Shown here piece by piece: positions 14,377 through 30,837 of a DNA stretch of 64,000 nt. Numbering within the stretch: the stretch's first letter is position 1; each line of letters begins with the position of its first letter. Position numbers and translations under genes: made by a program. The notes under the pieces were generated by a model that did no database searches, was not told where the DNA came from, and was given only the letters and a program-made list of their open reading frames with translations. Source of the DNA: Candidatus Limnocylindrales bacterium (GTDB lineage Bacteria; Chloroflexota; Limnocylindria; Limnocylindrales; CSP1-4). Location of the stretch: NCBI GenBank assembly GCA_036278755.1, contig DASUKL010000114.1, positions 7,659 through 71,658 of the forward strand, in the 5' to 3' direction.

Positions 14377-15663
14377 TCAACCATGGTGGTGCGAGGCCTG
14401 GGCCCGGCTGAGCTCGCGGGCCAGGTCGGCCACGTTGGCCACGTGCTGCGTGCCGGCCTGCAGGTCGCGGACCTGGACCTGGCCGCTGGCCAGCTCGTCG
14501 CCGACGATGACCGCGAAGTGCGCGCCCTCGCGGGCCGCGCCCTCGAGCTGGCGGCCGAGCCGTCGCGCCCCGAGGTCGGCCCGGGCCGCCAGGCCGGCCG
14601 CGCGCAGCTCGGTGGCCAACCGGAGGCGGGCCACGGTGGCCGCCGGATCGGCGCCCACGACCACCGCCGCGACACCCGGTGCGGGCGCCTCCTCGCCCGC
14701 CGCTGCCAGGGCCAGGGCCACCCGATCCAGCCCCAGGGCGAAGCCGATGGCCGGCGTCGGCTTGCCGCCCAGCAGCTCGACCAGGCCGTCGTAGCGGCCG
14801 CCACCGCCCAGGGCATCCTGCTGGCCGCCGGCCCCGCGGCGCTCATATTCGAAGGTCGTCCGGGTGTAGTAGTCGAGGCCCCGCACAAGGGTGGGGGCCA
14901 GGGTCACCGGCGCCTCCAGCGCAGCCAGGTGCTCCCGGAGCGCGGCGAAGTGATCGGCACAGGCGGCGCAGAGATGGTCGCCGATGCGCGGCGCGGCGGC
15001 GATGAGCCCGGCCAGGGCCGGCTCCTTGGAATCGAGGAGGCGCAGGGGGCTGGCCGTCAGGCGCTCGCGTTCGGCCGGTGGGAGCGACGCGGCGTGGTCC
15101 TCGAAGTAGGCCCGCAGGCGTTCGACATAGGCCGGCCGGCAGGCCTGGTCGCCGATCGAGTTCAGGCGGACCACGACGTCGTCGAGGCCGGCCTCGCCGT
15201 AGAAGCGCAACCCGAGCTCGACGATCTCGGCGTCGATGGCCGGCCCCGGATCGCCGATGGCCTCCACGTCCCACTGCCAGAACTGGCGGTAGCGACCGGC
15301 CTGCGGCCGGTCGTACCGGAACATCGGTCCGGCCAGCCAGACGCGGACCGGTTGGGGCAGGGTCTGCAGGCCGTGCTGCACGTAGGCCCGCACGATGCCG
15401 GCCGTGGCTTCGGGCCGGAGGGCCCACTGCTCGCGCTCGCTGCCCCGGCTGGGCACGACCCGGAAGAGCTCCTTCTCGACGATGTCCGTGACGGCGCCCA
15501 CGCCCCGTTCGAAGACCTCGCTCTGCTCGAAGAGCGGCGTCTCGATGGGGGCGTAGCCGTAGCGCCGGCCGAGATCGGCGGCGATGGCCTCGAGGCGGGC
15601 GAAGACGGCCCGTTCGGCGGGCAGCAGGTCACGGGTGCCCCGCGGGGCGCGATAGCTGGACAT
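14377..15663 (-). CDS. hisS: Histidyl-tRNA synthetase
   Basis: MSSYRAPRGTRDLLP...RPEATAGIVRAY...FRYDRPQAGRYRQFWQWDVEAIG...GGGRYDGL are canonical HisRS motifs; start at ATG 15661-15663. Confidence 0.9.
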   Translation of the reverse strand: MSSYRAPRGTRDLLPAERAVFARLEAIAADLGRRYGYAPIETPLFEQSEVFERGVGAVTDIVEKELFRVVPSRGSEREQWALRPEATAGIVRAYVQHGLQTLPQPVRVWLAGPMFRYDRPQAGRYRQFWQWDVEAIGDPGPAIDAEIVELGLRFYGEAGLDDVVVRLNSIGDQACRPAYVERLRAYFEDHAASLPPAERERLTASPLRLLDSKEPALAGLIAAAPRIGDHLCAACADHFAALREHLAALEAPVTLAPTLVRGLDYYTRTTFEYERRGAGGQQDALGGGGRYDGLVELLGGKPTPAIGFALGLDRVALALAAAGEEAPAPGVAAVVVGADPAATVARLRLATELRAAGLAARADLGARRLGRQLEGAAREGAHFAVIVGDELASGQVQVRDLQAGTQHVANVADLARELSRAQASHHHG

Positions 15664-15768
15664 CGAGGCAAGTCTACCGAGCGGCGGACCGGGGCTGGGG
15701 CCGGGCGGCTCCGTCCGAGCCGGATCGGAAGCCCAGGCCGGTCCCGCCTGTGGTACCACTGGGCCGTG

Positions 15769-16095
15769 ATGGAACCGACCCCGCCGCCCCCGCCGATCGT
15801 CCACGTCCTGCCCTGGCTGCGCCCCCTGGGCGAGCGTCTGCTGGCCGGCTGGCTGGCCATCACCCTGGGCCGCCACACGTTCGCCTGGCGCCCGCTCGAC
15901 GCCGCCGAACTGGCCCACGAGGCCTGTCATGTGGCCCAGTGGCAGCGCTACGGACCGCGCTTCATCGCCCGCTACGTGCGGGCCTCCTGGCTGGCCTGGC
16001 GAGCGGGCGGTTCGGCCTACCGCGACAACGCCTTCGAGCGGGCCGCCCAGGCGGCGGCGCGGGCCGCTCAGCTGAGGTCGCGCTGGACGGTGTAG
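15769..16095 (+). CDS. Small (108 aa) hypothetical protein with an HExxH-V-x-Q zincin-like motif (DUF4157-like?)
   Basis: MEPTPPPPPIVHVLPWLRPLGERLL...AITLGRHTFAWRPLDAAELAHEACHVAQWQRYG... ; high GC3. Convergently overlaps the relA 3' end by ~28 bp. It is the tail of antisense six-frame ORF 14320..16095. Confidence 0.4.
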   Translation: MEPTPPPPPIVHVLPWLRPLGERLLAGWLAITLGRHTFAWRPLDAAELAHEACHVAQWQRYGPRFIARYVRASWLAWRAGGSAYRDNAFERAAQAAARAAQLRSRWTV

Positions 16096-18347
16096 ACGTC
16101 CTTGAGCCGCTCCAAGCGGGCCATGACCCGGGCCAACTGGGCCACCGAGGCGACCTGGAAGGTGGCCCGCACGGTGGCCGTGTGATCGGGGTTGGTCTGG
16201 ACGTTGGCGGCCACGATGTTGACCTTGTGCTCGGCCACGACGTTGGTGATGTCGCTCAGCAGGCCGGTCCGGTCGTAGCCCTCGATGCGCACGGCGATGG
16301 GGTAGGTCTGGAGGACCTGGCCCTCCCACTCGACCCCGATGAGGCGATCGACATCGCGCTCGTTGACGGCCGTGGGGCAGGAGCGGAGATGGACGGTGAT
16401 GCCCTTGCCGCGGGTCACGTAGCCCACGATGGGATCACCGGGGATGGGATGGCAGCAGCGCCCGAAGCGGACCAGCAGGTCGGACATGCCATCGACCCGA
16501 ACGCCGCCGGTGCGCGTCGGAGGCGGCGGGGCGACGGTCGGCAGGACGGCCTCGTCGGCGTCGTCGATGACGCCCAGGCGCATGACCACGCCGGCCGCGC
16601 TGACCGCCCCGTAGCCGATGGCGGCGTAGAAGTCATCCACGGAGCCGAAGCGATAGGCCTCCGCCATCTCGGCGATCCGTTCCGGCCCGATGCGCTCGAG
16701 CGAGGTGCGGCCCAGGCGCCGCAGCTCGCGGTCCAGTGCCTCACGGCCCTGGACGATGTTCTCGTCCCGCTCCTGGCGCTTGAACCATTGGCGGATCTTC
16801 TCCCGCGCGTGACTGGTGCGGACGATGTTCAGCCAGTCACGTGACGGTCCGTGGTTGGCCTTGGTCGTGACGATCTCGACGATGTCCCCGTTCTGGAGCT
16901 TGTAGTCGAGCGGCACGAGGCGGTTGTTGACCTTGGCCCCGATGCAGCGATGGCCGACATCGGTGTGGATGCGGTAGGCGAAGTCGAGGGGCGTCGAGCC
17001 GGCCGGCAGGTCCTTGACCTCGCCCTTGGGGGTGAAGACGAAGACCTGGTCCTGGAAGATGTCGAGCTTGAGGCCCTCGACGAACTCCTGGGCGTCGGCC
17101 ACCTCGCGCTGCCAGTCGATGAGCTGACGGACCCAGGCCAGCTTGGCGTCGTACTCGCGGTCGACCCGCGAGCCCTCCTTGTAGCGCCAGTGGGCGGCGA
17201 TGCCCATCTCCGAGACGCGGTGCATGGCGTGGGTCCGGATCTGGACCTCGAGGGGCTTGCCATCGAGGGCGATGACGGCCGTGTGGAGGCTCTGGTACAT
17301 GTTGCCCTTGGGCATCGCGATGTAGTCGTCGAACTGGCCGGGGATGGGGCGCCAGATGGAGTGGGTCACGCCCAGGGCGGCGTAGCAATCGCGCACGTCG
17401 TCGACGAGGACCCGCACGGCGTAGGCGTCGTAGATCTCGCTGAAGTCCGCGCCCTTGCGCTCCATCTTCTTCCAGATGCTGTAGAGGTGCTTGGCCCGAC
17501 CCGAGAGCTCGGCCTCGATGCCCGCCTCGGCGAGGGCCGTGCGGAGGGTCTCCATGGCCCGCTCGATGTAGGTCTCCCGGGCCCGGCGGCGCGTCTCCAG
17601 CTGGGCCGCCAGCTTGCGGTAGGCCTCCGGCTCGAGGGCCTTGAAGGCCAGGTCCTCCAGCTCCCACTTGATCTGCCAGATGCCCAGGCGCTCGGCCAGG
17701 GGGGCGTAGATCTCCTGGGTCTGGCGGGCGATGCGGTGCTGCTTCTGGCGTGGCAGGGCGCCCAGGGTGCGCATGTTATGGAGCCGGTCGGCGAGCTTGA
17801 TGAGGACGACCCGGATGTCGTCGGCCATGGCCAGGAACATCTTGCGGATGTTCTCCGCCTGCCGCTCCTCGGCCGAGAGGGTGCTGAACTTGGAAAGCTT
17901 CGTGACGCCGTCGACGAGGCGGGCCACGTCCGGCCCGAAGCGCTCCTCGATATCCTCCAGGGCGTATTCGGTGTCCTCGGGGATGTCGTGCAGGAGGGCG
18001 GCCTGGATGGCTACCGGATCGAGGCCCAGGTCGGCCAGAGTGAGGGCCGCAGCGAGGGGGTGGCTGACGTACGGCTCGCCCGAGGCGCGCCGCTGGTCTT
18101 CGTGGGCCAGGGAGGCGAACTCGTAGGCCTGGCGCACGGCGGTCAGGTCGGCCTGGGGATGGTGCTCGAGGATGGCCGCCTCGAGCTGGTGCTCCTGGGC
18201 GTCGAGGGCCCGCCGGGTCAGGTGGACCGTGGGCGAGGCACGACCGGCCGCGCCACGCCCGGACACGGCGCGTCCAGCAGGCGTGCGCGCGGCCGCGGCG
18301 CGTGGGCGGCCGCCGGCGGTCCGATGGGGAACGGGTTCGATGGCCAT
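16068..18347 (-). CDS. relA: Bifunctional (p)ppGpp synthetase/hydrolase RelA/SpoT family
   Basis: HD domain (HPLAAALTLADLGLDPVAIQAALLHDIPEDT), synthetase, TGS and ACT regions. Real start MAIEPVPH at ATG 18345-18347; the six-frame ORF is over-extended. Confidence 0.9.
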   Translation of the reverse strand: MAIEPVPHRTAGGRPRAAAARTPAGRAVSGRGAAGRASPTVHLTRRALDAQEHQLEAAILEHHPQADLTAVRQAYEFASLAHEDQRRASGEPYVSHPLAAALTLADLGLDPVAIQAALLHDIPEDTEYALEDIEERFGPDVARLVDGVTKLSKFSTLSAEERQAENIRKMFLAMADDIRVVLIKLADRLHNMRTLGALPRQKQHRIARQTQEIYAPLAERLGIWQIKWELEDLAFKALEPEAYRKLAAQLETRRRARETYIERAMETLRTALAEAGIEAELSGRAKHLYSIWKKMERKGADFSEIYDAYAVRVLVDDVRDCYAALGVTHSIWRPIPGQFDDYIAMPKGNMYQSLHTAVIALDGKPLEVQIRTHAMHRVSEMGIAAHWRYKEGSRVDREYDAKLAWVRQLIDWQREVADAQEFVEGLKLDIFQDQVFVFTPKGEVKDLPAGSTPLDFAYRIHTDVGHRCIGAKVNNRLVPLDYKLQNGDIVEIVTTKANHGPSRDWLNIVRTSHAREKIRQWFKRQERDENIVQGREALDRELRRLGRTSLERIGPERIAEMAEAYRFGSVDDFYAAIGYGAVSAAGVVMRLGVIDDADEAVLPTVAPPPPTRTGGVRVDGMSDLLVRFGRCCHPIPGDPIVGYVTRGKGITVHLRSCPTAVNERDVDRLIGVEWEGQVLQTYPIAVRIEGYDRTGLLSDITNVVAEHKVNIVAANVQTNPDHTATVRATFQVASVAQLARVMARLERLKDVYTVQRDLS

Positions 18348-18367
18348 GGCGGCTCCGAGTGTAGCGG

Positions 18368-19450
18368 CTAACCTCGGCCCGACCACCGCCCGCGGGCCCG
18401 GCGGAGGCGGTCCCACAGGGGTTCGATGACCAGATCCCAGGTCCCCGGATGGCGCAGAGGCTGGCCGCCGAACGAGCGCTTGAAGGCACTGAAGCCGGCC
18501 CACGCCGGGTCGGCGGCCGGGTCGCCGCGCTCGGTCACGCCCCACAGGTCGAGCGTCCGTACCCCGTCCGCGGCCAGGGCCCGCATGGCCTCGGCCAGGG
18601 CGGCGTAGGGCCCGTAGAGATGGCGCACCGCCGGGTCGCGGCTCGAGGCGCCGTAGAGGTAGTAGGCCCGCGGACCGATGCGCGGCAGGGCCAGGCCGGC
18701 GATGGCCCGGCCGGAGGCGCGGGCCAGGACGAGGTACCAACCGTCCTGCTTCGCGAAGGCCGCCGCCGCGCGGGCCAGGAATCCCGCTGAGCGAGCCCGG
18801 AAGGCACCACGCTGGGCGGTCTCGGCCAACAGGCCGGCGAAGGCCTCGAGCGGCTCAGGATCCGCGTCACGGATGACCTCGACGCTGACGCCCTCGCGCT
18901 CCGCCCGCCGGGCCAGGCGCCGGGCATCGGCGTGCCAAGTGGCCCACAGGTCGGGGCCACCGTCCCGCAGCTCGACGAGGCGGGTCGTGGTGGCCTGGAG
19001 GTCGGTCTCGGCCCGGCGCAGGCCCAGGCTCGCGAGCAGCGGGGCCGGATCCGGGCCCTCGGGCACGGCCCGCGGGTCGAGCTTGACGACGATCGAGCGC
19101 TCGGCTCGAGCCAGGGCGCCCAGCCCACCCACCAGGGCGGCCAGGAGTTCCGGGCCGTCGGCGGCCTCGCGTTCCCAGAGCGGTCCATGGGGCAGGTAGA
19201 GCATCGTTCGCCCGAAGCCCAGCGGCCGGACGAGCCCCTGGGCCAGGCCGCGCAGCCGGCTGTCGCCCGCGTCCCGGCCTCCTTCCACGAGCAGCAGACG
19301 GCGGGGCGACTCGCCACTCGGGGCGACCACCTCGCCCCAGGCCCAGGTCTGCAGCGGATCGCCCTCCGGCCGCACGGCCACGAAGCCCTCCCAGGCCGCC
19401 CGGTCGGCCTCGGTCGCCGGGCGCACGGTCAGCGCGGGCCGAACGGCCAT
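18368..19450 (-). CDS. FemAB-family aminoacyl-tRNA-dependent peptidoglycan bridge-forming transferase, paralog 1
   Basis: MAVRPALTV...PLQTWAWGE...YYLYGASSRD...TLDLWGV match the FemX/FemA/FemB family signatures (QLT-WAE, YLYGASS, TYDFGG). Confidence 0.8.
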   Translation of the reverse strand: MAVRPALTVRPATEADRAAWEGFVAVRPEGDPLQTWAWGEVVAPSGESPRRLLLVEGGRDAGDSRLRGLAQGLVRPLGFGRTMLYLPHGPLWEREAADGPELLAALVGGLGALARAERSIVVKLDPRAVPEGPDPAPLLASLGLRRAETDLQATTTRLVELRDGGPDLWATWHADARRLARRAEREGVSVEVIRDADPEPLEAFAGLLAETAQRGAFRARSAGFLARAAAAFAKQDGWYLVLARASGRAIAGLALPRIGPRAYYLYGASSRDPAVRHLYGPYAALAEAMRALAADGVRTLDLWGVTERGDPAADPAWAGFSAFKRSFGGQPLRHPGTWDLVIEPLWDRLRRARGRWSGRG

Positions 19451-19470
19451 GGCCTCCTCATCCGGTGGCC

Positions 19471-21057
19471 TCAGGCCGGGTCGCCCCAGCCCGAGGCGGT
19501 CAGCGCCTCGCGCACGGCTGCCGCCTCGTCCCACGGCCGCGCCCCGTCGGGGCCCTCGATCGTCTTCTCGTGGCCCTTCCCGGCGAAGAGGACCACGTCC
19601 CCCGGCCGGGCGGCCTCGACGGCCGCGACCACGGCCGCCCACCGATCGGGGATGAGCCACAGATCCTGACCCTCGCGGGCACCGGCGGCCCTGGCGCCCT
19701 CGGCGATGGCCTCCAGGATGGCCCCTGACGGCTCGCCCCGGGGATCCTCGTCGGTGAGGACCGTGAGACGGCAGCGCTCCGCCGCCACGCGGCCCATGCT
19801 GGGCCGCTTGACGCGGTCCCGCTCGCCGCCCGAGCCGAAGACGGCGATGAGTCCGCCCCCGCCGGCGGCCGCCAGCGGGGCCAGCTCGTCGAGCACCTGG
19901 GCCAGGGCCTCGGCCGTATGGGCGTAGTCGACGACGGCCACGAAGGGCTGCCCGGCCTCCACCCGCTCCATGCGGCCCGGCACCCGGACCAGTCCGCCCA
20001 GGCCGGCCGCCACGGACTCCGGCTCGAGGCCCAACGCCTCGCCCACGGCCACCGCAGCCAGGGCATTGTGGGCGTTGTGCCGGCCCGCCAGCTGGAGCTG
20101 GATCCGTCCCTCCCCGCGGGGCGTGTGATAGCCCAGGCCCAGGCCCCGGACGCCCTCCTCGATGGCCAGCAAGCGCACGTCGGCCGCCTCGGCCGTGCCG
20201 TAGGTCAGGCAGGCCGCACCGGCCTCACGGGCCGCAGCCAGGAAGGCCTCGGCCTGGGGGTCGTCGAGGTTCACCAGGGCGTGCTTGCCGAAGCCCTTCT
20301 CGGGGTCGGCCGGGCCGACCGCCAACTGCTCGAAGAGGCGACGCTTGGCGGCCCGGTAGGCCTCCACGGTGCGGTGGAACTCCAGGTGCTCCGAGGTGAC
20401 GTTGGTCAAGATGGCCAGGTCGAAGGCCACCTCGGCCAGCCGACCCTGAGCCAGCCCGTGCGAGCTAGCTTCGACGACCGCCCAGCGGTCCCCGGCGGCG
20501 AGCATGGCCGCGAGGTGGCGCTGCAGCTCGGGCGCCTCCGGCGTCGTCGTCCGGCCGGGATTGCCCAGGTTGCGACCGCCGACCACGACGTCGACCGTGC
20601 CCAGGAGGCCCGTGGGCCGGCCGCTCGCTTCGAGCACGGCCCGCACCAGATAGCAGGTCGTGGTCTTGCCGTCGGTGCCGGTCACCCCGACCACGCCCAG
20701 CTCGTGCGAGGGATCGCCGCTCACCCAGGCCGCCGCCACGGCCAGGGCCGGCCGCGCCGCGCTCACGACGAGCTGCGGCACCGGCAGGCTGGGCAGGAGC
20801 CGCTCCACGACCACCGCCGACGCGCCCGCGGCGATGGCCTGGGGCACGAAGTCGTGGCCGTCGAACCGCTCGCCGCTGAGGGCCACGAAACAGTCGCCCG
20901 GCCCCATCTCACGCGAGTCCGCGTCCACCCGGCCGATCACCACGTGCGCCGGGCCCACGTGGCTCCCCTGACGGTCGACCCCCGGCACGACCTGGCGAAG
21001 GAGATCCCGGCTCTCGAGGGCGGCGACCAGGCTCCCCAGCGCGCGCGGCCGCGTCAC
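19471..21057 (-). CDS. murE: UDP-N-acetylmuramoyl-L-alanyl-D-glutamate--diamino-acid ligase MurE (variant DEDPR motif)
   Basis: GVTGTDGKTTTCYL (P-loop), DYAHTAEALAQVL, GSGGERDRVKRPSMG; motif LTDEDPRGE in place of the mDAP-type DNPR. GTG start at 21057 overlaps the upstream Fem stop (GTGA). Six-frame ORF 19471..22167 is a fusion artefact. Confidence 0.88.
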   Translation of the reverse strand: MTRPRALGSLVAALESRDLLRQVVPGVDRQGSHVGPAHVVIGRVDADSREMGPGDCFVALSGERFDGHDFVPQAIAAGASAVVVERLLPSLPVPQLVVSAARPALAVAAAWVSGDPSHELGVVGVTGTDGKTTTCYLVRAVLEASGRPTGLLGTVDVVVGGRNLGNPGRTTTPEAPELQRHLAAMLAAGDRWAVVEASSHGLAQGRLAEVAFDLAILTNVTSEHLEFHRTVEAYRAAKRRLFEQLAVGPADPEKGFGKHALVNLDDPQAEAFLAAAREAGAACLTYGTAEAADVRLLAIEEGVRGLGLGYHTPRGEGRIQLQLAGRHNAHNALAAVAVGEALGLEPESVAAGLGGLVRVPGRMERVEAGQPFVAVVDYAHTAEALAQVLDELAPLAAAGGGGLIAVFGSGGERDRVKRPSMGRVAAERCRLTVLTDEDPRGEPSGAILEAIAEGARAAGAREGQDLWLIPDRWAAVVAAVEAARPGDVVLFAGKGHEKTIEGPDGARPWDEAAAVREALTASGWGDPA

Positions 21058-22211
21058 GGAGCGCGGGCGGGCACAGCCGGCGCGGGGCGGCGGTCGGCGG
21101 CCAGTCCCGCCAGCCGACCGGTGATCCGGCCCGCGGCATAGCGCCACGGCCTCATGACCCGCTCCCGGTTGCCGCTCAGCTCCAGCCACTCCCCGCCCAG
21201 CAGCTCCTTGAAGCGCAGCAGGCCGTACATCGGCTCGCCCGCCTGAGGCCGACGGCGGCGGCCGGCGACGTCCACCCCGGCCAGGTCGACCTCGGCCCGC
21301 CCTTCGCGGAGGGCGAGCTCGAGGGCCCGCCACAGGATCAGGTGGGTCGTGCCCGGGTAGGCCCGCCGCCGCTCGACCACATCGCCGGCATGGGCATAGG
21401 TGAAGCGATCGCCGTGACGATAGAACATGGCCGCACCGAGCAGCTCGTCGTCGGGCGAGCGGACCTCGAGGATGAAGCCCAGCCCGGCGGTCACCGCATG
21501 GCCGCCCCAATCGAGGAAGCCTTCCGCCGGTCCCAGCCTGAACCGGCGTCGGGCCGCCGTGGCGGCCAGGATGGCATACAGGCGCTGGAGCGCCGCGCCG
21601 ATCTCGGCTGCGGCCAGCGGCCCGCCGGCCGGCGGCTCGATCCCCTCGCCCGCGCCGCCCGGGGCGTCGAACCGTCCGTAACCCAGGACCCGCACCCCGC
21701 GTCGCTCGGCGCCGCGGATCTCGTAGCGCACGGTGGCCGGTAGCTCGGCCAGGAGGGCGGCTTCGTCGAGGCCCGGCGGCAGGGCTCGGCGGAGGCGGTG
21801 GCGGGAGGGCTGGATCTCCTCGATCTGGCGGAAGCCCCGGGCTCGCAGGAGGTCCGGGTAGCCGGTCTCGACGGGCACCTCGGCGTCGCTCGAGACGACG
21901 TCGACCCCGTGCTCGCCAAGCCAGGCGGCGATGGCGTCGAGTCGGTCCGCGGCCGCTTCGAGCGGACCGCCCGACCAGACGGGCCCCCGCGAGATGTAAG
22001 CCCCCGCGCCCCCGATCCAGCGCCAGGGCCTGACCAGGACGAGGACGGGGTGGCCGCCATCGATCATCAGGTACCGCGGACGCCAGCCGTGGCGGCCGCG
22101 ATACTCGCCCCAGGCCCGCGACTGGTACACGTCCCCGCCGGGCACGGCTACGGTCAGCTCGTCCCACCGCTCCAGTTCCTCCGGGGTCGCCGCCCGGACC
22201 TCGAGGCTCAT
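21054..22211 (-). CDS. FemAB-family transferase, paralog 2
   Basis: MSLEVRAATPEELERWDEL...VYQSRAWGEYRGRHGWR...EVDLAGVD; stop overlaps the murE start. Confidence 0.8.
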   Translation of the reverse strand: MSLEVRAATPEELERWDELTVAVPGGDVYQSRAWGEYRGRHGWRPRYLMIDGGHPVLVLVRPWRWIGGAGAYISRGPVWSGGPLEAAADRLDAIAAWLGEHGVDVVSSDAEVPVETGYPDLLRARGFRQIEEIQPSRHRLRRALPPGLDEAALLAELPATVRYEIRGAERRGVRVLGYGRFDAPGGAGEGIEPPAGGPLAAAEIGAALQRLYAILAATAARRRFRLGPAEGFLDWGGHAVTAGLGFILEVRSPDDELLGAAMFYRHGDRFTYAHAGDVVERRRAYPGTTHLILWRALELALREGRAEVDLAGVDVAGRRRRPQAGEPMYGLLRFKELLGGEWLELSGNRERVMRPWRYAAGRITGRLAGLAADRRPAPAVPARAP

Positions 22212-22224
22212 CGTCGAAGGGGCC

Positions 22225-23406
22225 TCACAGGGCCGCCGACAGCCGCCGTCCAGCGAGGGCCCGTCCGGCGGCGAAGCCGGCCATCCGGAGGGCGGCCCCA
22301 CGCAGGCCGGCCGGGCTCCAAAGGCTCGTCCCGACGTACGACACGGCCCGGCCGCCCCACTGCTGCTTGAAGCCCAGCAGGCCCCAGGTGGGGTGCTCCG
22401 GCCCATCCGGCAGGCGCGGATCGCCGAAGACGTTGACGCCGCCCATGTCGTAGGTCCGGAAGCCGGACTCGCGGGCCCACTCGATGATGGCCCACTGCAG
22501 GGCGAAGTTCGCTGGCACCCGGCGCCGGTCGGCCTCTCGCTCCCCGGTCTGGAAGAGGAGGGCCCGGCAGCCGCAGTGATGGACCACCGTATGGGCCAGG
22601 TCGAGCCCCTCGCGCCGAGCGAAGAAGAGCGTCGCCGCGCCGGCCTCGACGAGGGCCCGCGTGGAGGCCACGTGGTAGGCCTCGGGGCGCAGCACGAAGC
22701 CCTTGCGCTGGCCGGTCAGGGAGATGATCTCGTACGAGTCGTGGTAGGCCGCCTCGCGGACCTCTGGGGGGCTGTCGCGATCGACCCGCTCGACGACCAC
22801 GCCGGCCCGGGCGGCACGGCTGACGTTGCGGGCCACGTTATCGCTGAGGAGGGCGTGCTGCGCCTCGGAGCTGGCGGTGAGGGGCACGATCACGCCCGTG
22901 GCCGAGACCTGGATCTGGACCGGGCTGGCCCAGAAAGCGGCCTCGCCGAGCGTCCCGGCCTGGGGGCCGTCCAGGGCCCAAGCCGGGTCGACGATCAGGA
23001 GCGACGCTCCCCTCGCCCGAGCCACCCGGCGGAGGACGCGCAGGGCCAGGAGGGCCGCATCTCGCCCCTCCCGGAGGAGGACGGGCCCCAGCGGGGCGTA
23101 GAGCAGCCGGCCGGCCAGCGGGCGGGCCGCCGCGGCCAGCGAGAGGGGCAGGAATCGAGGCCGGGCCAGATCGGTCAGGGGCAGGCCCAGGAGGCTGGCC
23201 GCGGCGATGGGGCCGGCCCCGTCCTCCATCAGGAAGCGGTGCACGGTCCAGCCGCTGGTGGTCCGTTTGAACTCGCCCCAGGCGTGGCTCTGGAGGGCTT
23301 CGCCCCGCGGCATCCGGACCGCGAAGGCGTCCCAGGTGACGGCAGGCTGGTCGGTGAGATCCAGGAGGCGCACGTTCCCGGGGCCAGAGGTCGGGGGCGG
23401 GGACAT
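22225..23406 (-). CDS. FemAB-family transferase, paralog 3
   Basis: ALQSHAWGEFKRTTSGWTV...TYDMGGVNVFGD...GLLGFKQQWGG. Confidence 0.8.
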   Translation of the reverse strand: MSPPPTSGPGNVRLLDLTDQPAVTWDAFAVRMPRGEALQSHAWGEFKRTTSGWTVHRFLMEDGAGPIAAASLLGLPLTDLARPRFLPLSLAAAARPLAGRLLYAPLGPVLLREGRDAALLALRVLRRVARARGASLLIVDPAWALDGPQAGTLGEAAFWASPVQIQVSATGVIVPLTASSEAQHALLSDNVARNVSRAARAGVVVERVDRDSPPEVREAAYHDSYEIISLTGQRKGFVLRPEAYHVASTRALVEAGAATLFFARREGLDLAHTVVHHCGCRALLFQTGEREADRRRVPANFALQWAIIEWARESGFRTYDMGGVNVFGDPRLPDGPEHPTWGLLGFKQQWGGRAVSYVGTSLWSPAGLRGAALRMAGFAAGRALAGRRLSAAL

Positions 23407-23411
23407 GCGGG

Positions 23412-24566
23412 CTAGTCTAGCCCAGGGTCGCGGCCGTCCAGGACCCGGCGGGCAGCCCGCGCCGCGTCCGCCAATCGGGCCCTGGGCCGGAGGACGATGC
23501 GCCGTGCCCGCGTCTGCCAGACCCAGCTGGCGCCGTAGCCGGCCTTGTGCTGGTAGAGGCCCCAGCCCGGGTCGGCCGGCCCGCTGGGGATGGCCCGCTG
23601 ACCGGGGGTGTCGACCCCCCCGAGCATGACCGCCTCCGCGCCGCCGGTCAGGGCCTCGCGGATGACGGTCCAGCGGAGCAGATGCATGACCCCCGGCACG
23701 TTCCGCCGTTCGCTGATGAGGTCACCCGAGAAGGCGGTCGCGTACGTCCCGCCCTGGAGGTAGAGGAGGATGGCCCCCAGGAGGCGGCCGTCGCGCTCGG
23801 CCACCAGGAACCGGGCCTGGCGGGCGGCCAGCAGCCGGCGCCACCAGCCGAGGTAGCCGGCCTGGGGCCGCAGTTCGAAGCCCCGCCGCTCGGCCGTGGC
23901 CTCGAGGAACCCGGCGAAGGCGTCCAGGGCCTGGCCGTCGGGGTCATCCCGGACGATCACGCCCGCGGCCTCTGCGGCCCGGATCCGCTGACGGGTCGAC
24001 TTGGAGCAGGCGGCCCGCAGGCCGGTCTCGGTGCTGCCCGGCGGCAGGGCCAGGCGCATGACGTGGATCGACGGCTGGGCCTCACGCGCCGGGCGGAAGC
24101 CGGCCAGGGCCATGGCCCGTTCGTAGTCCGGGTCGGCCGGCAGCTCGGGGTCGACGGTCAGGGCCCCCAGTCCCTCGGCCCGCAGTCGGTCGGCCAGGGC
24201 CGTCGCCCGAGCCGCCACGGCCAGCGGCGGATCGCCGGCCGAGATGGGGCCGCGCCGGCAGTGGGCCTCGCGACCGGCGAGACGCGACCGACCCTCCAGC
24301 ACGAGGGCCACCCGGCCGTCGCTGAAGGCGGCGAAGCGTGGTCGGCCACCCCGGGCACGGATGTGCTCGGCCCAGGTCGTGCCCTGGAGGACCTGGCCGC
24401 CAGGCGCATCGACGGCCAGGGCGTCCCAGCCGGGCGGCGCCTCGTCGTCGAGCCTGACGACCTGCGGGAGCGGGGCGAGGCTCATCGACGGCTCATCCCC
24501 TTGGGCGGGCGGACGGTCGACATCGGGCTCGTGGTCGTCGTCGGGCTCATCGTCGTCATCGGCCAT
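23412..24566 (-). CDS. FemAB-family transferase, paralog 4 (acidic N-terminal extension; alternative start MSLAPLPQ at ~24485)
   Basis: VLQGTTWAEHIRARGGRPRF...VMLGGVD...GLYQHKAGYGAS. Confidence 0.75.
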   Translation of the reverse strand: MADDDDEPDDDHEPDVDRPPAQGDEPSMSLAPLPQVVRLDDEAPPGWDALAVDAPGGQVLQGTTWAEHIRARGGRPRFAAFSDGRVALVLEGRSRLAGREAHCRRGPISAGDPPLAVAARATALADRLRAEGLGALTVDPELPADPDYERAMALAGFRPAREAQPSIHVMRLALPPGSTETGLRAACSKSTRQRIRAAEAAGVIVRDDPDGQALDAFAGFLEATAERRGFELRPQAGYLGWWRRLLAARQARFLVAERDGRLLGAILLYLQGGTYATAFSGDLISERRNVPGVMHLLRWTVIREALTGGAEAVMLGGVDTPGQRAIPSGPADPGWGLYQHKAGYGASWVWQTRARRIVLRPRARLADAARAARRVLDGRDPGLD

Positions 24567-25614
24567 CCGGAGGACTGGCGCGGCGCACGGCGCTGGCGGC
24601 GCGGCCGACGACCTGCTCGAGGGCCGCCCCCAGGGGCTCGATGATCAGCTCCCAGCCGCCCGTGTACGTCGTCTCTTGGCCCCCGAAACCGCGCTTGAAC
24701 TGGGCCAGGCCGGGCGCGTCGGTGCCCCACATGTCGTAGCGCCGGAAGCCGCCTGCCGCGGCCCGCCGCATGGCCTCCCACTTGAGCAGGTAGTTCGCGT
24801 GGAGGGCCGCCCCGGCCTCGGTCATGCCGCCGTACAGCTCCACCGTCCGGTCGCCGCAGCGCACCAGGAGGAGGCCGGCCAGGGTCTCGCTCCCTGGCTG
24901 GCTCCCAGCGGCAGCGTGGCTCTCGGGCGCGCCGTCGCCTCCGGCGAGCGGGCGCTGGGCGAGGAGCAGGCCAGCCGCCCCGCGACGGTCGAAGGCGGCG
25001 TAGACGGCCCGCACCCGCGCGGCCCGGAAGCCCACCCGCCGGGCCGTGGCCTCGTGGATGGGCACGAAGGCGTCGAGGCCGCCCGCGCCGGCGTCGGCGA
25101 TCACGACCCCCTCGCGCGCCGCCTTGTGGACGTACTGGCGCCACTTGGGCCGCAGCGCGGACCACAGCTCGGGCTCGGGGCGGCTCACGTCGACGATCCG
25201 GGTGACGTTGATCTCGAAGGACGGCACTCGGCGCCACCCGGCACGGCGCAGGCCGTCCTCCAGCGGGTGCCCGAGCGGCAGCTCGGGATCGATGAGGACT
25301 CGGCTCAGCCGCAAGCCTCGTCCGGCCGCCCGCAGGGCCCCGGTGAGAGCCGCGATGGCTCCGCTGCTCAACTCGGCGGCCACGGGCCCCCGATGGCCGT
25401 AGGCCCGCGACCATGGCCCCCAGCGCGGCCGATGCAGGAGGAGCTGGATGCCCACCGGCCCACCGGGACCCGGCGCGACGACCCGCTCGACCCGCCAGCC
25501 GCCGCTGGCATTGGCCTCGGCCCAGGCCGTGAGCTGGGGGAACGAGCCATACGGCGCGCCCGCGACGAAGGCGTCCCAGGCCCTGTCGTCGGCGGCGAGG
25601 TCGGTCGGCCTCAT
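24556..25614 (-). CDS. FemAB-family transferase, paralog 5
   Basis: FPQLTAWAEANASGGWRVERV...RYDMWGTDAPGLAQFKRGFGG; start overlaps the murJ stop (ATGA). Confidence 0.8.
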   Translation of the reverse strand: MRPTDLAADDRAWDAFVAGAPYGSFPQLTAWAEANASGGWRVERVVAPGPGGPVGIQLLLHRPRWGPWSRAYGHRGPVAAELSSGAIAALTGALRAAGRGLRLSRVLIDPELPLGHPLEDGLRRAGWRRVPSFEINVTRIVDVSRPEPELWSALRPKWRQYVHKAAREGVVIADAGAGGLDAFVPIHEATARRVGFRAARVRAVYAAFDRRGAAGLLLAQRPLAGGDGAPESHAAAGSQPGSETLAGLLLVRCGDRTVELYGGMTEAGAALHANYLLKWEAMRRAAAGGFRRYDMWGTDAPGLAQFKRGFGGQETTYTGGWELIIEPLGAALEQVVGRAASAVRRASPPDGR

Positions 25615-27308
25615 GCTCCGGAGCGGCCGAGATGGAGGGCCGAGCGGGCCAGGTCGAGGCTGGCCTGGAGCTCCGGCAGCCGGAGGAGCCGACTGATGGC
25701 GACGAAAGCCAGGGCCGCGGCCAGGAAGGAGACGGCCGCCTCGCTCAGGAGGAGGAACCGCCCGGGCTCCGCCCCCACGGCCTGGAGGATGCCGTTGCGG
25801 ACCAGCTGGGCGACGGCGGCAGCCCCCAGCGCGGCGGTCCCGAAGAGGAGCCCGGCCCGGCTCATCTCGACCAGGTCGAGGCCCGGCAGCCAGCGGGCCA
25901 GGAGGATCAGCAGGAGGATGGCCTCGAACCAGGCCCCGGCAGCGATGCCCACGGCCAGGGCGTCGAGGCCCAGCGGGCCGACGGTGGCCACGGCCACGGC
26001 CACGTTGACGACGACCGAGAGGATGGCCGCCATGACCGGGGTCCGGGTGTCCTTGCGAGCGTAGTAGGCCCGGGCCAGGACGACGATGAGGGCGTGCCCG
26101 GCCAGGCCCACGAGGAAGACGGCCAGCATGCCCGCCACCACCGGCACATCGGCATCGCGGAACTGGCCATAGTCGTAGAGGAACGTCGTGGCCTCGCGCT
26201 GGAGGACGACACCCACGGCCGTCAGGAAGAGCATGACGTACAGGAGCATGCGCAGGGAGCGCACGATCATGGCCGAGAAGTCACGACCGGCGCCCAGGGC
26301 CGCGGCCCGCGAGAGGGTCGGCAGGAGGATGATGCCCAGCGGCAGGCCGATGACCCCCAAGGGGATCTGCATCGCGGTGAAGGCCAGGTTGTAGGCCGTC
26401 AGGGCCCCGATGCCGAGGCCCGCGGCGAGGGTCGTGTTGACCAGGAAGGTGATCTGCGTGGCCCCCAGGCCGATGGCCCGGGGGATGAGCAGCACCAGCG
26501 CCTCGCGGGCGGCCGGGTCGCTCAGGTCGATCGTCCCGAGCTCGAAGTGGAAGCCCCGCTGGCGAACCAGGCTCGGCACTTGGATGGCGGCATTGAGGAA
26601 GGCTCCCACGACGACGCCCACGGCCAGCGCGCCCACACCCAGGAGCGGCGAGAGGAAGAGCGCGGCGGCGATGATGGCCACGTTGTAGAGCAGCGGCGCG
26701 ACGGCTGCCACCGTGAAGCGGCCCAGGGCGTTGAGGGCCGAGGAGGCGATCGCACCCAGGGTCAGGAAGATCGGCGAGAGGAGCATGAGCCGCGTCATGG
26801 GCACGATCCGGGCCAGCTCGTCCGGCCCGTAGGACGGCGTCAGGAGGGCGACCAGCCAGGGCGCGGCGACGAAGGCCGCGACGGCCAGCACCAGGAGGCC
26901 GCCCAGCATGAGGTTGCTGATGGTCGAGACGACCCGCCAGGCGCGCGCATCCTGGTCGTGGGCGAAGAGGCCCGCCAGGACGGGGATCACGGCCGCGCCG
27001 AGGGCCCCCGCGGCCACCAGCTGGAAGACGAGGTCGGGGATGCGGAAGGCGGCATAGTACGTATCGAGCTGCGTGCCGACACCGAAGACGGCACTGAAGA
27101 CGACCGTCCGGATCCAGCCCAGGACGCGGGAGGCGAGGTAGGCCCCGCTGACGATGAGGCCGGCCCGAGCCAGCATGCCCGCCGATCCGAGCGACCCGGC
27201 CGAGCCCGACTCGGCCGAGCCCGATGCGCTCGGCGACGCGGCCGGCTCGGGGGCCCCCAGTGGCTCCTCCTCGGGCCCGACGGACGTCTCGGCCTCGAGG
27301 CCGCTCAC
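25611..27308 (-). CDS. murJ: Lipid II flippase MurJ (MviN)
   Basis: ...GAYLASRVLGWIRTVVFSAVFGVGTQLDTYYAAFRIPDLVFQL... and 12-14 TM helices. Low-complexity N-terminal 44 aa; true start may be MLARAGL at ~27176. Confidence 0.85.
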   Translation of the reverse strand: MSGLEAETSVGPEEEPLGAPEPAASPSASGSAESGSAGSLGSAGMLARAGLIVSGAYLASRVLGWIRTVVFSAVFGVGTQLDTYYAAFRIPDLVFQLVAAGALGAAVIPVLAGLFAHDQDARAWRVVSTISNLMLGGLLVLAVAAFVAAPWLVALLTPSYGPDELARIVPMTRLMLLSPIFLTLGAIASSALNALGRFTVAAVAPLLYNVAIIAAALFLSPLLGVGALAVGVVVGAFLNAAIQVPSLVRQRGFHFELGTIDLSDPAAREALVLLIPRAIGLGATQITFLVNTTLAAGLGIGALTAYNLAFTAMQIPLGVIGLPLGIILLPTLSRAAALGAGRDFSAMIVRSLRMLLYVMLFLTAVGVVLQREATTFLYDYGQFRDADVPVVAGMLAVFLVGLAGHALIVVLARAYYARKDTRTPVMAAILSVVVNVAVAVATVGPLGLDALAVGIAAGAWFEAILLLILLARWLPGLDLVEMSRAGLLFGTAALGAAAVAQLVRNGILQAVGAEPGRFLLLSEAAVSFLAAALAFVAISRLLRLPELQASLDLARSALHLGRSGA

Positions 27309-28291
27309 GAGCCGGTGTCGCCTCGACCAGGTCCCCCCGTGGCCCGCGGATGGGCCGCCAGGTAGGCCGAACGGAGGCGGGCCGGGGCCACGTGGGTGTA
27401 GATCTGGGTCGTGGCCAGGCTAGCGTGGCCCAGCAGCTCCTGGACGACGCGCAGGTCGGCCCCGCCGTCGAGCAGGTGACTGGCGAAGGAGTGGCGCAGG
27501 GTGTGGGGATGGACGCCCTGCGGCAGGCCGGCCCGCGCGGCCAGACGGTCGAATCGGTAACGCAGCCCACGCACGCCGAGCGGCCCACCGGCGGCGTTGA
27601 GGAAGAGGCGGCCGTCGTCGGCCGGCGCGGGTCGACCGGCGCCGGCGGCGCGCTCCAGGGCCGCCTGGCGGAGGCGGGGCCGGCCGGTGGCCAGATAGTC
27701 GATCAGGGCCGCGCGAGCCGGTCGACCCAGAAGGCAGATGCGCTCCTTGCGGCCCTTGCCCAGGACCCGGACCTCACCGCGCCGCAGGTCGACCTCGTCG
27801 ATGGTCGTGCCGGCCAGCTCGCTGATCCGCAGCCCAGCCGCGTAGGCCGTCTCGATGAGGGCCCGATCACGCAAGGCGAGGGCCTCCGCGAGCGAGCCGG
27901 CCCCCGCCTCTGGATCCTGGGTGCGGTCGATGAGACGCTCCACGTCGCCGACCTCGAGGACCTGCGGCAGGCGGTGCGGACGCCGCGGGGCGCTGAGCGC
28001 GGCCCAGGGGTCGCCGGCCACCCAGCCCTCCCGCTCGGCGTGGCGATAGAAGGCCCGCACGGCGGCCACCCGGGCCGAGATCGTCGTCCGCGCCAGGCCG
28101 CGCCCGTCGAGCTCGGCCAGGTAGGCCCGCAGGGCACCACGGCCGGGCTGGCGCCAATCGAGTCCCGGGCGCTGGGCCAGCCAGGCCAGGTACTGCCCGA
28201 TGGCCGTGGCATACGCCCGGCGGGTGTGGGGCGACGTATCGCGGGCGGCCAGCGCCTCCAGGAACCGCTCGAGCGCCGCCGCGCCCGTCAC
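27305..28291 (-). CDS. xerC: Tyrosine recombinase XerC/XerD family
   Basis: N-terminal SAM-like region (RRAYATAIGQYLAWL), catalytic R...HTLRHSFASHLLDGGADLRVVQELLGHASLATTQIYTHV. GTG start overlaps the topA stop (GTGA); stop overlaps the murJ start (ATGA). Six-frame ORF over-extended to 28816. Confidence 0.85.
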   Translation of the reverse strand: MTGAAALERFLEALAARDTSPHTRRAYATAIGQYLAWLAQRPGLDWRQPGRGALRAYLAELDGRGLARTTISARVAAVRAFYRHAEREGWVAGDPWAALSAPRRPHRLPQVLEVGDVERLIDRTQDPEAGAGSLAEALALRDRALIETAYAAGLRISELAGTTIDEVDLRRGEVRVLGKGRKERICLLGRPARAALIDYLATGRPRLRQAALERAAGAGRPAPADDGRLFLNAAGGPLGVRGLRYRFDRLAARAGLPQGVHPHTLRHSFASHLLDGGADLRVVQELLGHASLATTQIYTHVAPARLRSAYLAAHPRATGGPGRGDTGS

Positions 28292-30708
28292 GCCGCCGGT
28301 GCCGAACGCCTGACCGACGTGCGCCCCGCCGCGGGCCGCTTCGACGAGCGTCCGGTGCGGCCGGCCGCCGGGCGTCGGCCGCGGCTCGGACCACGCTTGC
28401 GGACCAGCGCGCTGGGCTCCGGTGGGCCGCCGGGGAGGCGTAGCCCGACGAGCTCGGTACCCGCCGCAGGCAGCTCGATGGTGGCGCCGCAAGCCAGGCA
28501 GATGGCGCCCTCCGCGCGGCGCGCCACGGGGCCCTCGTCGGCGTCGTGGAGCGCGCCCAGGGGCTCGAAGTTCGTGGTGAAGTCGCAGGCCGGATAGCGC
28601 GAGCAACCCCAGAAGACATTGCCCGTGCGTCGTGCCCGGCGGGCGGTCAGTTGCCCCTCGTGGCAGGTGGGGCAGGTCACGGCGAACGGCAGCTGGTCGG
28701 GCGGCGGTGGGCCCGACTTCTGGATGAAGTCGCAGGCGGGGTAACGCGAGCAGCCGAGGAACGGCCCGAAGCGACCCTGGCGCATGGTCAGCTGACCCTC
28801 GCCACACTTGGGACACGGCTCGCCGGCGCCGGGCAGGGCCTCGGGCTCCTCGCCCGGCAACGGCCGCGTCTCCTTGTGCTCGGGATACATCGAGCAGGCC
28901 AGGAATCGCCCGTTGCGACCAAGGCGGATGACCATGGGGTGGCCCAGCGAGCAGACCTCGTCGCTGGGCTCGGTGGTGAAGTCGGCCCGGCGGAGCTCCT
29001 GGCGCTTCTCGGCCACGCGAGCCTCCAGCGGTCCGTAGAACTCGCGCAGGAGCGGCACTGAGGCCAGCTCGCCGCGGGCCACCTCGTCGAGGCGCTCCTC
29101 CATGCGGGCCGTGAAGGCCAGGTCGACGAACTCACCGAAGTGCTCCACGAGCAGGTCGGTCACGATCTCGGCCACGATCTCCGGATGGAGCCGGCGGGCT
29201 TCGACCCGCACGTAGCCGCGATCGATGATCGTGGAGATGATCGAGGCATAGGTCGAGGGCCGACCCACACCGTGTTCCTCGAGGGCCTTGATGAGGGTGG
29301 CCTCGGTGAAGCGCGGCGGCGGCTCGGTGAAGTGCTGGCTCGGGGCGACGTCGGCCACGTCGGTCGCCTCGCCCTCCGCCAGGGCAGGCAAACGCCGCTC
29401 CTCCTCGTCGTCGGCCTGCTCGTCGTCATGGCCCTCGGTGTAGACCCGGGCGAACCCATCGAAAAGCGTCCGCGTGGCGCTGGCCCGCAGCCCGTAGCGA
29501 CCGGCGGCCAGCTCGGCCGTCGTCGTCTCGAGCCGCTTGTCGGCCATCTGCGAGGCCAGGGCGCGCTGCCAGACGAGACGGTATAGGCGCAGCTCCTCCG
29601 GTTTGAGGCTGGCCGCGACGGCGTCGGGCGTTCGGGCGAAGCTCGTCGGCCGCACGGCCTCGTGGGCCTCCTGGGCGCCGCGGACCTTGGTCTTGTGAAC
29701 GCGGCCCTTGAGCAGGGCGTAGTCATCGCCGAAGCGCTCGCGGATCACGGCCCGGGCCTCGTTCATGGCCACGCTGGCCATGGCCGTCGAGTCGGTCCGC
29801 ATGTAGGTGATGAGTCCGACCTGCCCTTCGGGAGTCTCCACACCCTCGTACAGGCGCTGGGCGATGGACATCGTCCGCTTGGGGCTGAACCCGAGCTTGC
29901 GGCTGGCCTCCTGCTGGAGGGTGCTGGTGGTGAAGGGCGGCGCCGGGCTGCGGCGCGACGTGCGGCTGCCGAGCCGCTCGACCAGCGGCCGCAGGAGGCG
30001 CAGGGCCGCGGCATGCTCCTCGGCCGCCCCGCCGTCACCGATCTCGGCCGCCTGGCCGTCGATCTTCACCAGCTCAGCCGTGAAGCGGTCCCCGCGCTCG
30101 GTCACGAGCTCGACCGCGAGGGTCCAGTACTCGCGGGCCTCGAAGGCCCGGATGGCACGCTCGCGCTCCACCACGAGGCGCACCGCGACCGACTGGACCC
30201 GGCCCGCAGAGAGGCCGCCGCGGACCTTGCGGGAGAGGAGCGGGCTGAGGGTGTAGCCCACCAGGCGGTCGACGATGCGGCGCGCCTGCTGGGCCTCGAC
30301 GAGATCGCCGTCGATGCTCCGGGGATGGGCGAAGGCCTCCCGGATGGCCGACTCGGTGATCTCGCTGAAGGTCACCCGTCGCTGCTTGTCGGCGGGCACC
30401 GAGGCCGCCTCGGCGACGTGCCAGGCGATGGCCTCGCCCTCGCGGTCGAGGTCCGTGGCCAGCCAGACGGCGTCGGCCTTGCGGGCCTCGCGGGCGATGG
30501 TCTCGACCTGCTTGCGCCGGTCGTCGGGCACGACGTAGTCCGGCCGGAAGTCGTGCTCGACATCGACCCCGAACTTGCCCTTGCCGGGATTCTCGGGGAG
30601 GTCGCGCACGTGGCCGTAGGAGGCGAGGACGTGGTAGTCGGGGCCGAGATAGCGCTCGATCGTCCGGGCCTTGGCCGGCGACTCCACGATGACGAGGTTC
30701 CTTGACAT
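28288..30708 (-). CDS. topA: DNA topoisomerase I
   Basis: TOPRIM domain (MSRNLVIVESPAKARTIERYLG), catalytic Tyr region, three C-terminal Cys4 zinc ribbons (CPKCGEG...CSRYPACDF) and a basic tail. Start at ATG 30706-30708. Confidence 0.92.
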   Translation of the reverse strand: MSRNLVIVESPAKARTIERYLGPDYHVLASYGHVRDLPENPGKGKFGVDVEHDFRPDYVVPDDRRKQVETIAREARKADAVWLATDLDREGEAIAWHVAEAASVPADKQRRVTFSEITESAIREAFAHPRSIDGDLVEAQQARRIVDRLVGYTLSPLLSRKVRGGLSAGRVQSVAVRLVVERERAIRAFEAREYWTLAVELVTERGDRFTAELVKIDGQAAEIGDGGAAEEHAAALRLLRPLVERLGSRTSRRSPAPPFTTSTLQQEASRKLGFSPKRTMSIAQRLYEGVETPEGQVGLITYMRTDSTAMASVAMNEARAVIRERFGDDYALLKGRVHKTKVRGAQEAHEAVRPTSFARTPDAVAASLKPEELRLYRLVWQRALASQMADKRLETTTAELAAGRYGLRASATRTLFDGFARVYTEGHDDEQADDEEERRLPALAEGEATDVADVAPSQHFTEPPPRFTEATLIKALEEHGVGRPSTYASIISTIIDRGYVRVEARRLHPEIVAEIVTDLLVEHFGEFVDLAFTARMEERLDEVARGELASVPLLREFYGPLEARVAEKRQELRRADFTTEPSDEVCSLGHPMVIRLGRNGRFLACSMYPEHKETRPLPGEEPEALPGAGEPCPKCGEGQLTMRQGRFGPFLGCSRYPACDFIQKSGPPPPDQLPFAVTCPTCHEGQLTARRARRTGNVFWGCSRYPACDFTTNFEPLGALHDADEGPVARRAEGAICLACGATIELPAAGTELVGLRLPGGPPEPSALVRKRGPSRGRRPAAGRTGRSSKRPAAGRTSVRRSAPAA

Positions 30709-30837
30709 CGGCCGGGAGTGTAGCACCGGCCTCTTGGCCCACCCTTCACCCCGACTCGACCGGCTCTTCACCCCGCGGGGCGGGCGCCGGGCCGGCGAGG
30801 ACGGCTCCCGCCCGGTGCTCAGCCTGGGGATCCGGGC

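Follow-up and report, generated by a model that had tools for sequence, protein, structure and literature searches.

The 64,000-nucleotide window analyzed here, part of contig DASUKL010000114.1 of Candidatus Limnocylindrales bacterium, contains five genes coding for putative FemX-type aminoacyl-tRNA transferases (Fem1 to Fem5), arranged in a single train with murJ, the lipid II flippase gene, and murE, the gene for the ligase that adds the third stem-peptide residue. We propose, with moderate confidence, that the products of this train work as a tRNA-dependent assembly line, coupled to MurE and MurJ, that provides lipid II with a branch of several residues, probably not all of one kind. In this pathway, five FemX-type aminoacyl-tRNA-dependent peptidyl transferases would build a peptide branch on the third stem-peptide residue, the future cross-bridge. 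The Fem genes would be co-transcribed with murE, whose product would install the acceptor residue, and with murJ, whose product would flip the finished branched lipid II. Each paralog would most likely have its own step, set by the position in the chain and/or by the amino acid, and with all five types the bridge would come to contain several residues, its composition probably being mixed. The family, fold and catalytic lysine of the proteins, the operon structure, and the conservation and modularity of the cassette in relatives were observed; which tRNAs serve as donors, what the acceptor is, in which order the enzymes act, and how long the bridge is and of what it is composed are what we infer.

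The train runs on the minus strand in the order xerC-murJ-Fem5-Fem4-Fem3-Fem2-murE-Fem1-relA. A preliminary description of this DNA had located all five paralogs between murJ and murE; four of them are indeed found there, and Fem1 lies downstream of murE. The coordinates that it gave for the five genes correspond in each case to an intact ATG-to-stop open reading frame (ORF) on the minus strand. The components of the train are the following.

About 27305..28300, minus strand: gene at the head of the train, for a xerC/xerD-like tyrosine recombinase (Pfam matches Phage_integrase, 129.6 bits, and Phage_int_SAM_1; start approximate)
25611..27308, minus strand: murJ, lipid II flippase (PF03023 266.4 bits; TIGR01695 291.2 bits)
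24556..25614, minus strand: Fem5, 352 amino acids, predicted FemX-type aminoacyl-tRNA transferase (PF02388 83.0 bits; NCBI HEX5466809.1, FemA/FemB family)
23412..24566, minus strand: Fem4, 384 amino acids with the long start, sister paralog of Fem2 (PF02388 33.1 bits)
22225..23406, minus strand: Fem3, 393 amino acids (PF02388 60.5 bits; Protein Data Bank matches 6SNR and FemX of Weissella viridescens, FemX_Wv)
21054..22211, minus strand: Fem2, 385 amino acids (PF02388 23.4 bits; FemX fold in the structure model)
19471..21057, minus strand: murE, ligase for the third stem-peptide residue (TIGR01085 450 bits)
18368..19450, minus strand: Fem1, 360 amino acids, preceded by GGAGG; closest paralog Fem5, 34% identity (PF02388 57.1 bits)
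16068..18347, minus strand: relA/spoT homologue with HD_4, RelA_SpoT, TGS and ACT domains, starting 20 nucleotides past the Fem1 stop

Four of the junctions overlap: xerC/murJ (GTGA), murJ/Fem5 (ATGA), Fem5/Fem4 (11 nucleotides, with the long Fem4 start) and Fem2/murE (GTGA). The other four are gaps of 5 nucleotides (Fem4/Fem3), 13 nucleotides (Fem3/Fem2) and 20 nucleotides (murE/Fem1 and Fem1/relA). The coupled train with start/stop overlaps that had been described is thus real and extends further than stated, from xerC to relA, while half of its junctions are gaps of 5-20 nucleotides; translational coupling is suggested by the gene spacing. No promoter-like or terminator-like sites above chance were detected within the train, and no further Fem genes were found in the window.

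The Pfam FemAB family (PF02388) has a cut-off of 24 bits, which was exceeded by Fem1, Fem3, Fem4 and Fem5 and narrowly missed by Fem2. Nonetheless, Fem2 is 35% identical to Fem4 (E 1e-42; 2e-42 in the reverse direction), and most of its listed homologues carry PF02388. When a joint profile of the five proteins was searched, the matches included S. aureus FemX (6SNR, E 9e-46), W. viridescens FemX (4II9, E 2.5e-28) and FemA (1LRZ, E 1.5e-13), and the aminoacyl-tRNA-dependent peptide synthases of natural-product pathways ranked below FemX and FemA. Fem5 alone matched S. aureus FemX 6SNR with an E of 2e-16. A structure model of Fem2 built from 38 homologues had a predicted local distance difference test (pLDDT) score of 93.6 and a predicted template modeling (pTM) score of 0.90, and its top Foldseek matches were FemX_Wv (1XE4, E 4e-20, template modeling scores 0.69/0.79) and S. 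aureus FemX (6SNR, E 1.7e-19). The FemX fold, which consists of two GNAT domains, was modeled for Fem2, and in the other four proteins it is predicted from full-length profile alignment to 6SNR and 4II9.

The arm-bearing subclass composed of FemA, FemB, FemX_Sa and MurM is characterized by an antiparallel coiled coil, about 50-65 residues long, that is inserted in subdomain 1B (PMC8280954). In the alignments, 6SNR has an insertion of about 66 residues that spans the coiled coil (residues 235-297) and that none of the five paralogs shares, and the helical arm is also absent from the Fem2 model. The five proteins fall outside this subclass, and the missing coiled-coil stretch indicates that all of them have the compact architecture of FemX_Wv. 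The Weissella-type FemX equivalog model NF047883 (UDP-MurNAc-pentapeptide-lysine N6-alanyltransferase), with a cut-off of 500 bits, scored between 16.5 and 50 bits in four paralogs and did not match Fem5 at E<=0.01. By their sequences, the five proteins rank as relatives, not orthologues, of the Weissella enzyme.

Two other assignments were considered and rejected. The only match to the FemAB proteins of the PEP-CTERM/XrtA type (TIGR03019) was that of Fem5, at 31.2 bits compared with a cut-off of 260.35, and the neighbors are murJ and murE, not exopolysaccharide genes. An assignment to natural-product enzymes was discarded on the basis of the scores and the gene context. The preliminary description had stated that an assignment by profile searches to a non-peptidoglycan FemAB-fold subfamily would refute its reading, and the scores do not point to such an assignment. 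The profile and structure comparisons support the classification of the five proteins as peptidoglycan-type Fem transferases, of predicted activity. That some or all of them act instead on an acceptor other than peptidoglycan, be it a small molecule (as in VlmA, PacB, DhpH/DhpK or Orf11-type enzymes), a lipid or a protein, is in our opinion very improbable. The fold is common to natural-product synthases (9WQW/9WQY, E ~2e-16) and MprF-type domains, and such enzymes have been reviewed (PMC12945691). However, peptidoglycan FemX enzymes were always the best matches, the genes are flanked by murJ and murE and not by genes of a biosynthetic cluster, and the linkage to murJ and murE is repeated in most of the approximately 90 loci compared.

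Computed pairwise identities among the five paralogs range between 27 and 35%, in agreement with the 25-35% that had been estimated by eye, and the closest pairs are Fem2/Fem4 (35%) and Fem1/Fem5 (34%). The motifs that the preliminary description had attributed to all five proteins are only partly shared. W-[AG]-E is present in every one of them, 'YLYGASS' is clear in Fem1 (YYLYGASS), weak in Fem5 and unrecognizable in the others, and Fem4 lacks the Asp of 'TYDxGG'. To place the active site, the FemX_Wv numbering was rebuilt from a printed alignment and checked against residues named in the literature (PMC8280954). The equivalent of Lys305 of FemX_Wv was invariant, being found in the five paralogs (K324 of Fem1) and in 142 of the 142 aligned sequences; a catalytic role has been assigned to this lysine (PMC12945691). 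The equivalent of Asp108 was nearly invariant in the same alignment and was kept in every orthogroup.

The orthogroups were obtained by clustering 140 Fem sequences taken from the compared loci and the window. Four resulted: Fem5-type (n=84), Fem2/Fem4-type, Fem3-type and Fem1-type. The alignment to FemX that had been suggested as a way of mapping pocket residues showed that K36, W39, R211 and F304 vary by orthogroup. The FemX_Wv positions listed below have been reported to bind UDP-MurNAc-pentapeptide (PMC8280954).

Fem5-type: K36, W39, R211, Y256 and F304 kept; the window's own Fem5 has Asn at K36
Fem3-type: K36, W39, R211, Y215 and F304 kept; the same in the window's Fem3, which also has K305
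Fem2/Fem4-type: K36 replaced by Arg, R211 mostly Gly, F304 mostly His
Fem1-type: K36 and W39 lost; R211, Y256 and F304 kept

This pattern would fit different acceptors, i.e., different steps. Orthologues share 46-78% identity, compared with 27-35% between paralogs, which supports the view that the paralogs are ancient types, each conserved in its own right, and not recent duplicates. The earlier suggestion that the paralogs differ in specificity and did not arise by recent duplication agrees with both the identities and the differences between orthogroups at the acceptor-binding positions. One could argue that some paralogs are decaying or non-catalytic and that a count of five overstates the working set. 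Fem2 is under the Pfam threshold and is a 'hypothetical protein' at NCBI, the R211 and F304 equivalents are mostly lost in the Fem2/Fem4 group, and the second Fem gene is split across frames in two relatives (L003 and L004). Weighed against the five intact ORFs, the Lys305 and Asp108 equivalents present in every group, the confident modeling of Fem2 as a FemX protein and the orthologues that remain 68-78% identical across lineages, this explanation seems highly unlikely.

The identification of the two partner genes is based on profile scores. MurJ exceeded the cut-offs of TIGR01695 (291.2 vs 235.55 bits) and PF03023 (266.4 vs 27.4 bits). MurE, in addition to its TIGR01085 match and to matches in the Protein Data Bank, scored 409 bits with NF001126 (cut-off 373) and 429 bits with NF001124 (cut-off 476). 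In E. coli and other enzymes that add diaminopimelate (DAP), the substrate motif of MurE is DNPR, in which Asn and Arg hold the free carboxylate of DAP (PMC3829189). The window's MurE has EDPR (TDEDPRGE; residues 437-441 when numbered on the translation of 19471-21060), with the Arg kept and the Asn changed to Asp. The identical EDPR was found in relatives with one or two Fem genes (L029, L034, L044, L053, L067 and L087). The Thermotoga maritima enzyme, which has DDPR, adds both L- and D-Lys in vivo (PMC9434261).

The conservation of the cassette was analyzed in 92 loci, designated by numbers preceded by L, from metagenome and genome assemblies, of which about 90 are independent. Most of the independent loci show the arrangement murJ-Fem(n)-murE, and the layout across the lineage is (topA-)xerC-murJ-Fem(n)-murE-[Fem]-relA-hisS-aspS, with the xerC-like recombinase gene unchanged in position. 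In the 27 loci that span the whole cluster, the number of Fem genes was one in 6, two in 15, three in 5 and four in 1. These counts come from a sample retrieved with a Fem5-type query, in which that type is over-represented. The individual layouts are shown below.

Fem5 only: L034, L038, L079 and others
Fem5 plus a Fem2-type or Fem4-type gene: the commonest layout
Fem5-Fem4-murE-Fem3: L010
Fem5-Fem4-murE-Fem1: L023
Fem5-Fem2-Fem1-murE: L054
Fem5-Fem4-Fem5'-murE-Fem3: L012
Fem2-murE-Fem1, without a Fem5 type: L089/L090
Fem-murE-Fem-Fem1: L091

The Fem1 type was located after murE in L017, L023, L049, L089, L091 and L092, a position occupied by the Fem3 type in some other relatives. The full order Fem5-Fem4-Fem3-Fem2-murE-Fem1 was present in a second lineage with 68-78% protein identity, represented by four independent sequencing runs; L092 contains the stretch from within Fem5 to Fem1, and L006-L008 supply murJ and the complete Fem5. 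The Fem4 orthologue in L006/L092 is 76% identical to that of the window. Since the same five-gene order recurs in a second lineage, the five-Fem set is not an assembly artifact. Five is the top of a range of one to five Fem genes, and it is kept in at least two diverged populations. A universal Fem5 type was rejected, because the 80-locus sample had been selected with a query of this type and because L089/L090 lack it. Fem1 had 553 homologues at E<=1e-10, and the 120 best listed were 54-74% identical to it, except for one exact match. The scan of the genome collection with Fem3 as a single sequence gave one distant gammaproteobacterial match; such a scan reaches close relatives only, and an alignment query would go further. 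An exact look-up of Fem5 in the contig index gave no record.

Several loci depart from the usual structure. In L067 (1497-3637) the order is inverted from the usual one, murJ, Fem2-type, Fem5-type, murE, and the cassette is thus rearranged as well as expanded and contracted. In L026 (856-4132), two tandem murJ-like stretches are located upstream of a three-Fem cluster. A Fem gene is split over two reading frames in L003 (11113-12199) and L004 (11117-12143), where it is the second Fem gene, and in L075 (1941-2975), where it is the first. The gene caller joined the front part of the split gene of L004 to the preceding gene, producing a 548-amino-acid product. The splits could be due to assembly errors or to real pseudogenization. 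In L004, a gene of the beta-lactamase/penicillin-binding protein family (PF00144) is found directly past the post-murE Fem gene and an NlpC/P60 hydrolase gene is nearby (15066-16397 and 19671-20423); their products are possible partners in bridge processing.

A number of facts weigh against the proposed assembly line. The relative L089, whose MurJ and MurE are both 73% identical to those of the window, is about as close as the second five-Fem lineage and has only the Fem2 and Fem1 types, which implies that three of the five genes are dispensable in that background. The minimal sets of the relatives differ, being either the Fem5 type alone or the Fem2 type plus the Fem1 type, and consequently the window may hold two initiators, which speaks against a single linear line. 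Bridge length cannot be read from the Fem gene count, as shown by S. aureus FemA and FemB, which add two residues each (PMC6428869), and by FmhA and FmhC, which replace residues with no chain extension (bioRxiv 10.1101/2024.09.27.615381). With EDPR in place of DNPR, MurE may add DAP or another third residue, and the literature search retrieved no paper on the peptidoglycan bridge of Limnocylindria. From the gene set, a long or mixed bridge appears plausible, and bridges that are alternative or edited are just as conceivable as a single long chain. In L089, the murJ-Fem2 spacer (6983-7230, about 250 nucleotides) includes a segment, 7090-7116, that matches the window's Fem4-stop/Fem3-start junction (23392-23419) at 25 of 28 positions. 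With an E of 0.11 the match is not significant, and it is suggestive only of a scar left by deletion of three Fem genes.

The same comparisons bear on the main rival reading, a less likely but possible division of labor in which one to three Fem enzymes build the bridge and the others substitute or add particular residues, making the wall heterogeneous or conditionally modified, not simply longer. Such editing could, for example, provide escape from bridge-specific peptidoglycan hydrolases or phage endolysins, as in the cases of FmhA/FmhC, Lif/Epr, Zif and ScrI in Firmicutes. The patchy distribution of Fem types among close relatives, with cluster sizes from one to five, speaks in its favor, as do the lack of the Fem5, Fem4 and Fem3 types in L089 despite 73% MurJ/MurE identity and the two minimal sets, which suggest that bridge synthesis could have more than one initiator. 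There is also precedent for accessory Fem enzymes (bioRxiv 10.1101/2024.09.27.615381). However, the five genes share a single compact housekeeping train in which none is set apart by regulatory spacing, neither hydrolase nor bacteriocin genes were found beside them in the window, and the whole five-gene set was kept in two diverged lineages. The proposal of an assembly line remains our preferred reading. A broader view, which we put forward only tentatively, is that in Limnocylindria the surroundings of murE may form a 'cell-wall chemotype' locus, modular and quick to change, at which four old Fem types would be gained, lost, duplicated and moved, and that the cross-bridges of close relatives may differ. 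The five-Fem lineages would then have a bridge of at least five residues or two alternative bridges with different initiators, and the driver could be bridge-specific hydrolases or phage endolysins.

The remainder of the window was also surveyed. Because its G+C content is about 73%, long spurious ORFs occur on both strands, and the real genes were picked out by codon-position G+C and family searches. The ORFs at 16851-18371 (plus strand), 19918-21141 (plus strand) and 19471-22167 (minus strand) were rejected as genes; they have 400-900 codons, are antisense or out of frame, and their low-complexity products, rich in Arg, Gly, Ala and Pro, are high-G+C artifacts. The long-start form of Fem4 has an acidic N-terminal extension (MADDDDEPDDDHEPD...) encoded by the first 27 codons, which is absent from the 357-amino-acid orthologue of L092. 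Translation may in fact begin at the ATG of residue 28, giving a protein of about 357 amino acids, in which case the 11-nucleotide overlap with Fem5 would be replaced by a gap of about 70 nucleotides. The long form has no matching sequence in the NCBI collection, and the annotated Fem4 start is therefore probably different. The proteins of the train are exact matches to NCBI entries HEX5466804-HEX5466810, from a metagenome-assembled genome of Candidatus Limnocylindrales bacterium, where they are carried by a contig of 98 kb. Fem1, Fem3 and Fem5 are named 'peptidoglycan bridge formation glycyltransferase FemA/FemB family protein' and MurE is named as a DAP ligase.

Upstream of the train, a minus-strand block (28288-35747) contains a comM-like gene of the Mg-chelatase family, dprA, a gene for a Big_5 Ig-domain protein and topA, and is syntenic with L002, L004 and L089. 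Downstream of relA are hisS, aspS, gatC and gatA. The gene order indicates that the Fem cassette is embedded in a stable housekeeping block. The preliminary description had pointed to hisS, aspS and the gat genes as a possible aminoacyl-tRNA supply for the Fem enzymes. This idea was rejected, since relA-hisS-aspS, along with gatC-gatA where the locus extends far enough, is unchanged in relatives with two Fem genes, which makes it a case of conserved synteny unrelated to Fem number. The relA-hisS-aspS linkage is also found in Bacillus, the peptidoglycan of which has direct cross-links without a bridge. A candidate dedicated cell-wall tRNA, the 94-nucleotide 'tRNA-Gly(ACC)' called by ARAGORN at 42641-42734 (minus strand), was rejected as well; its length and anticodon are atypical and it is below the Rfam tRNA gathering threshold, so the call is probably a false positive. 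The survey of the rest of the window showed housekeeping genes only, with no wall hydrolases or transpeptidases.

Among known systems, W. viridescens FemX (1NE9, 4II9), a UDP-MurNAc-pentapeptide:L-Ala transferase, resembles the window's proteins in its compact two-GNAT structure without an arm. Its Lys305 has an equivalent in all five, and its Phe304 in Fem1, Fem3 and Fem5, with mostly His in the Fem2/Fem4 group. It differs in that identity is only about 20% and K36, R211 and Y215 are not found in every paralog. S. aureus is likewise a multi-paralog system with five family members per genome, FemX, FemA and FemB (PMC6428869) and FmhA and FmhC (bioRxiv 10.1101/2024.09.27.615381), in which each enzyme has its own bridge position. 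Unlike the Fem genes of the window, those of S. aureus are scattered, with fmhB alone and only femA and femB co-transcribed (PMC6428869), and do not form a train with murJ and murE. By sequence, the window's proteins match S. aureus FemX (6SNR) best, although the staphylococcal enzymes have a coiled-coil arm of about 60 residues that these lack. Two-enzyme bridge systems are found in Enterococcus faecalis (BppA1/BppA2) and Streptococcus pneumoniae (MurN, with MurM), and neither is known to be linked to murJ or murE. Both carry out sequential aminoacyl-tRNA-dependent additions to the position-3 side chain of lipid II, and they resemble the two-Fem layout that is the commonest in the lineage (15/27). 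MurM bears the coiled-coil arm (PMC8280954). Ornithine (Orn)-type walls occur among cultured Chloroflexota. One example, Ktedonobacter racemifer, belongs to another class of the phylum, and its peptidoglycan contains Orn:Ala:Glu:Ser:Gly at about 0.7:1.8:1.0:0.8:1.9, and the N-terminal residue of its bridge is Ser (PMC3236041). This chemical observation of a Ser/Gly bridge on an Orn-type wall is a precedent in the phylum for multi-residue bridges that are mixed in composition.

The Fem enzymes belong to a known family, most of them are already annotated as such, and no new mechanism is involved. In the literature search we found no description of a five-gene tandem Fem set fused with murJ and murE, nor of its modular variation from one to five Fem genes in an uncultured class, nor of a set that has the arm-less FemX_Wv architecture throughout. 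The linkage of murE, Fem genes and murJ unites in one block the functions by which the third stem-peptide residue is added, decorated and exported. The four orthogroups provide a compact natural set of arm-less FemX-type enzymes that could be used to study the choice of position and amino acid, and the variation from one to five Fem genes among relatives offers a handle on the evolution of peptidoglycan chemotypes. Limnocylindria are an abundant soil and freshwater lineage with no member whose cell wall has been described, and for them the cluster predicts branched lipid II and a complex bridge.

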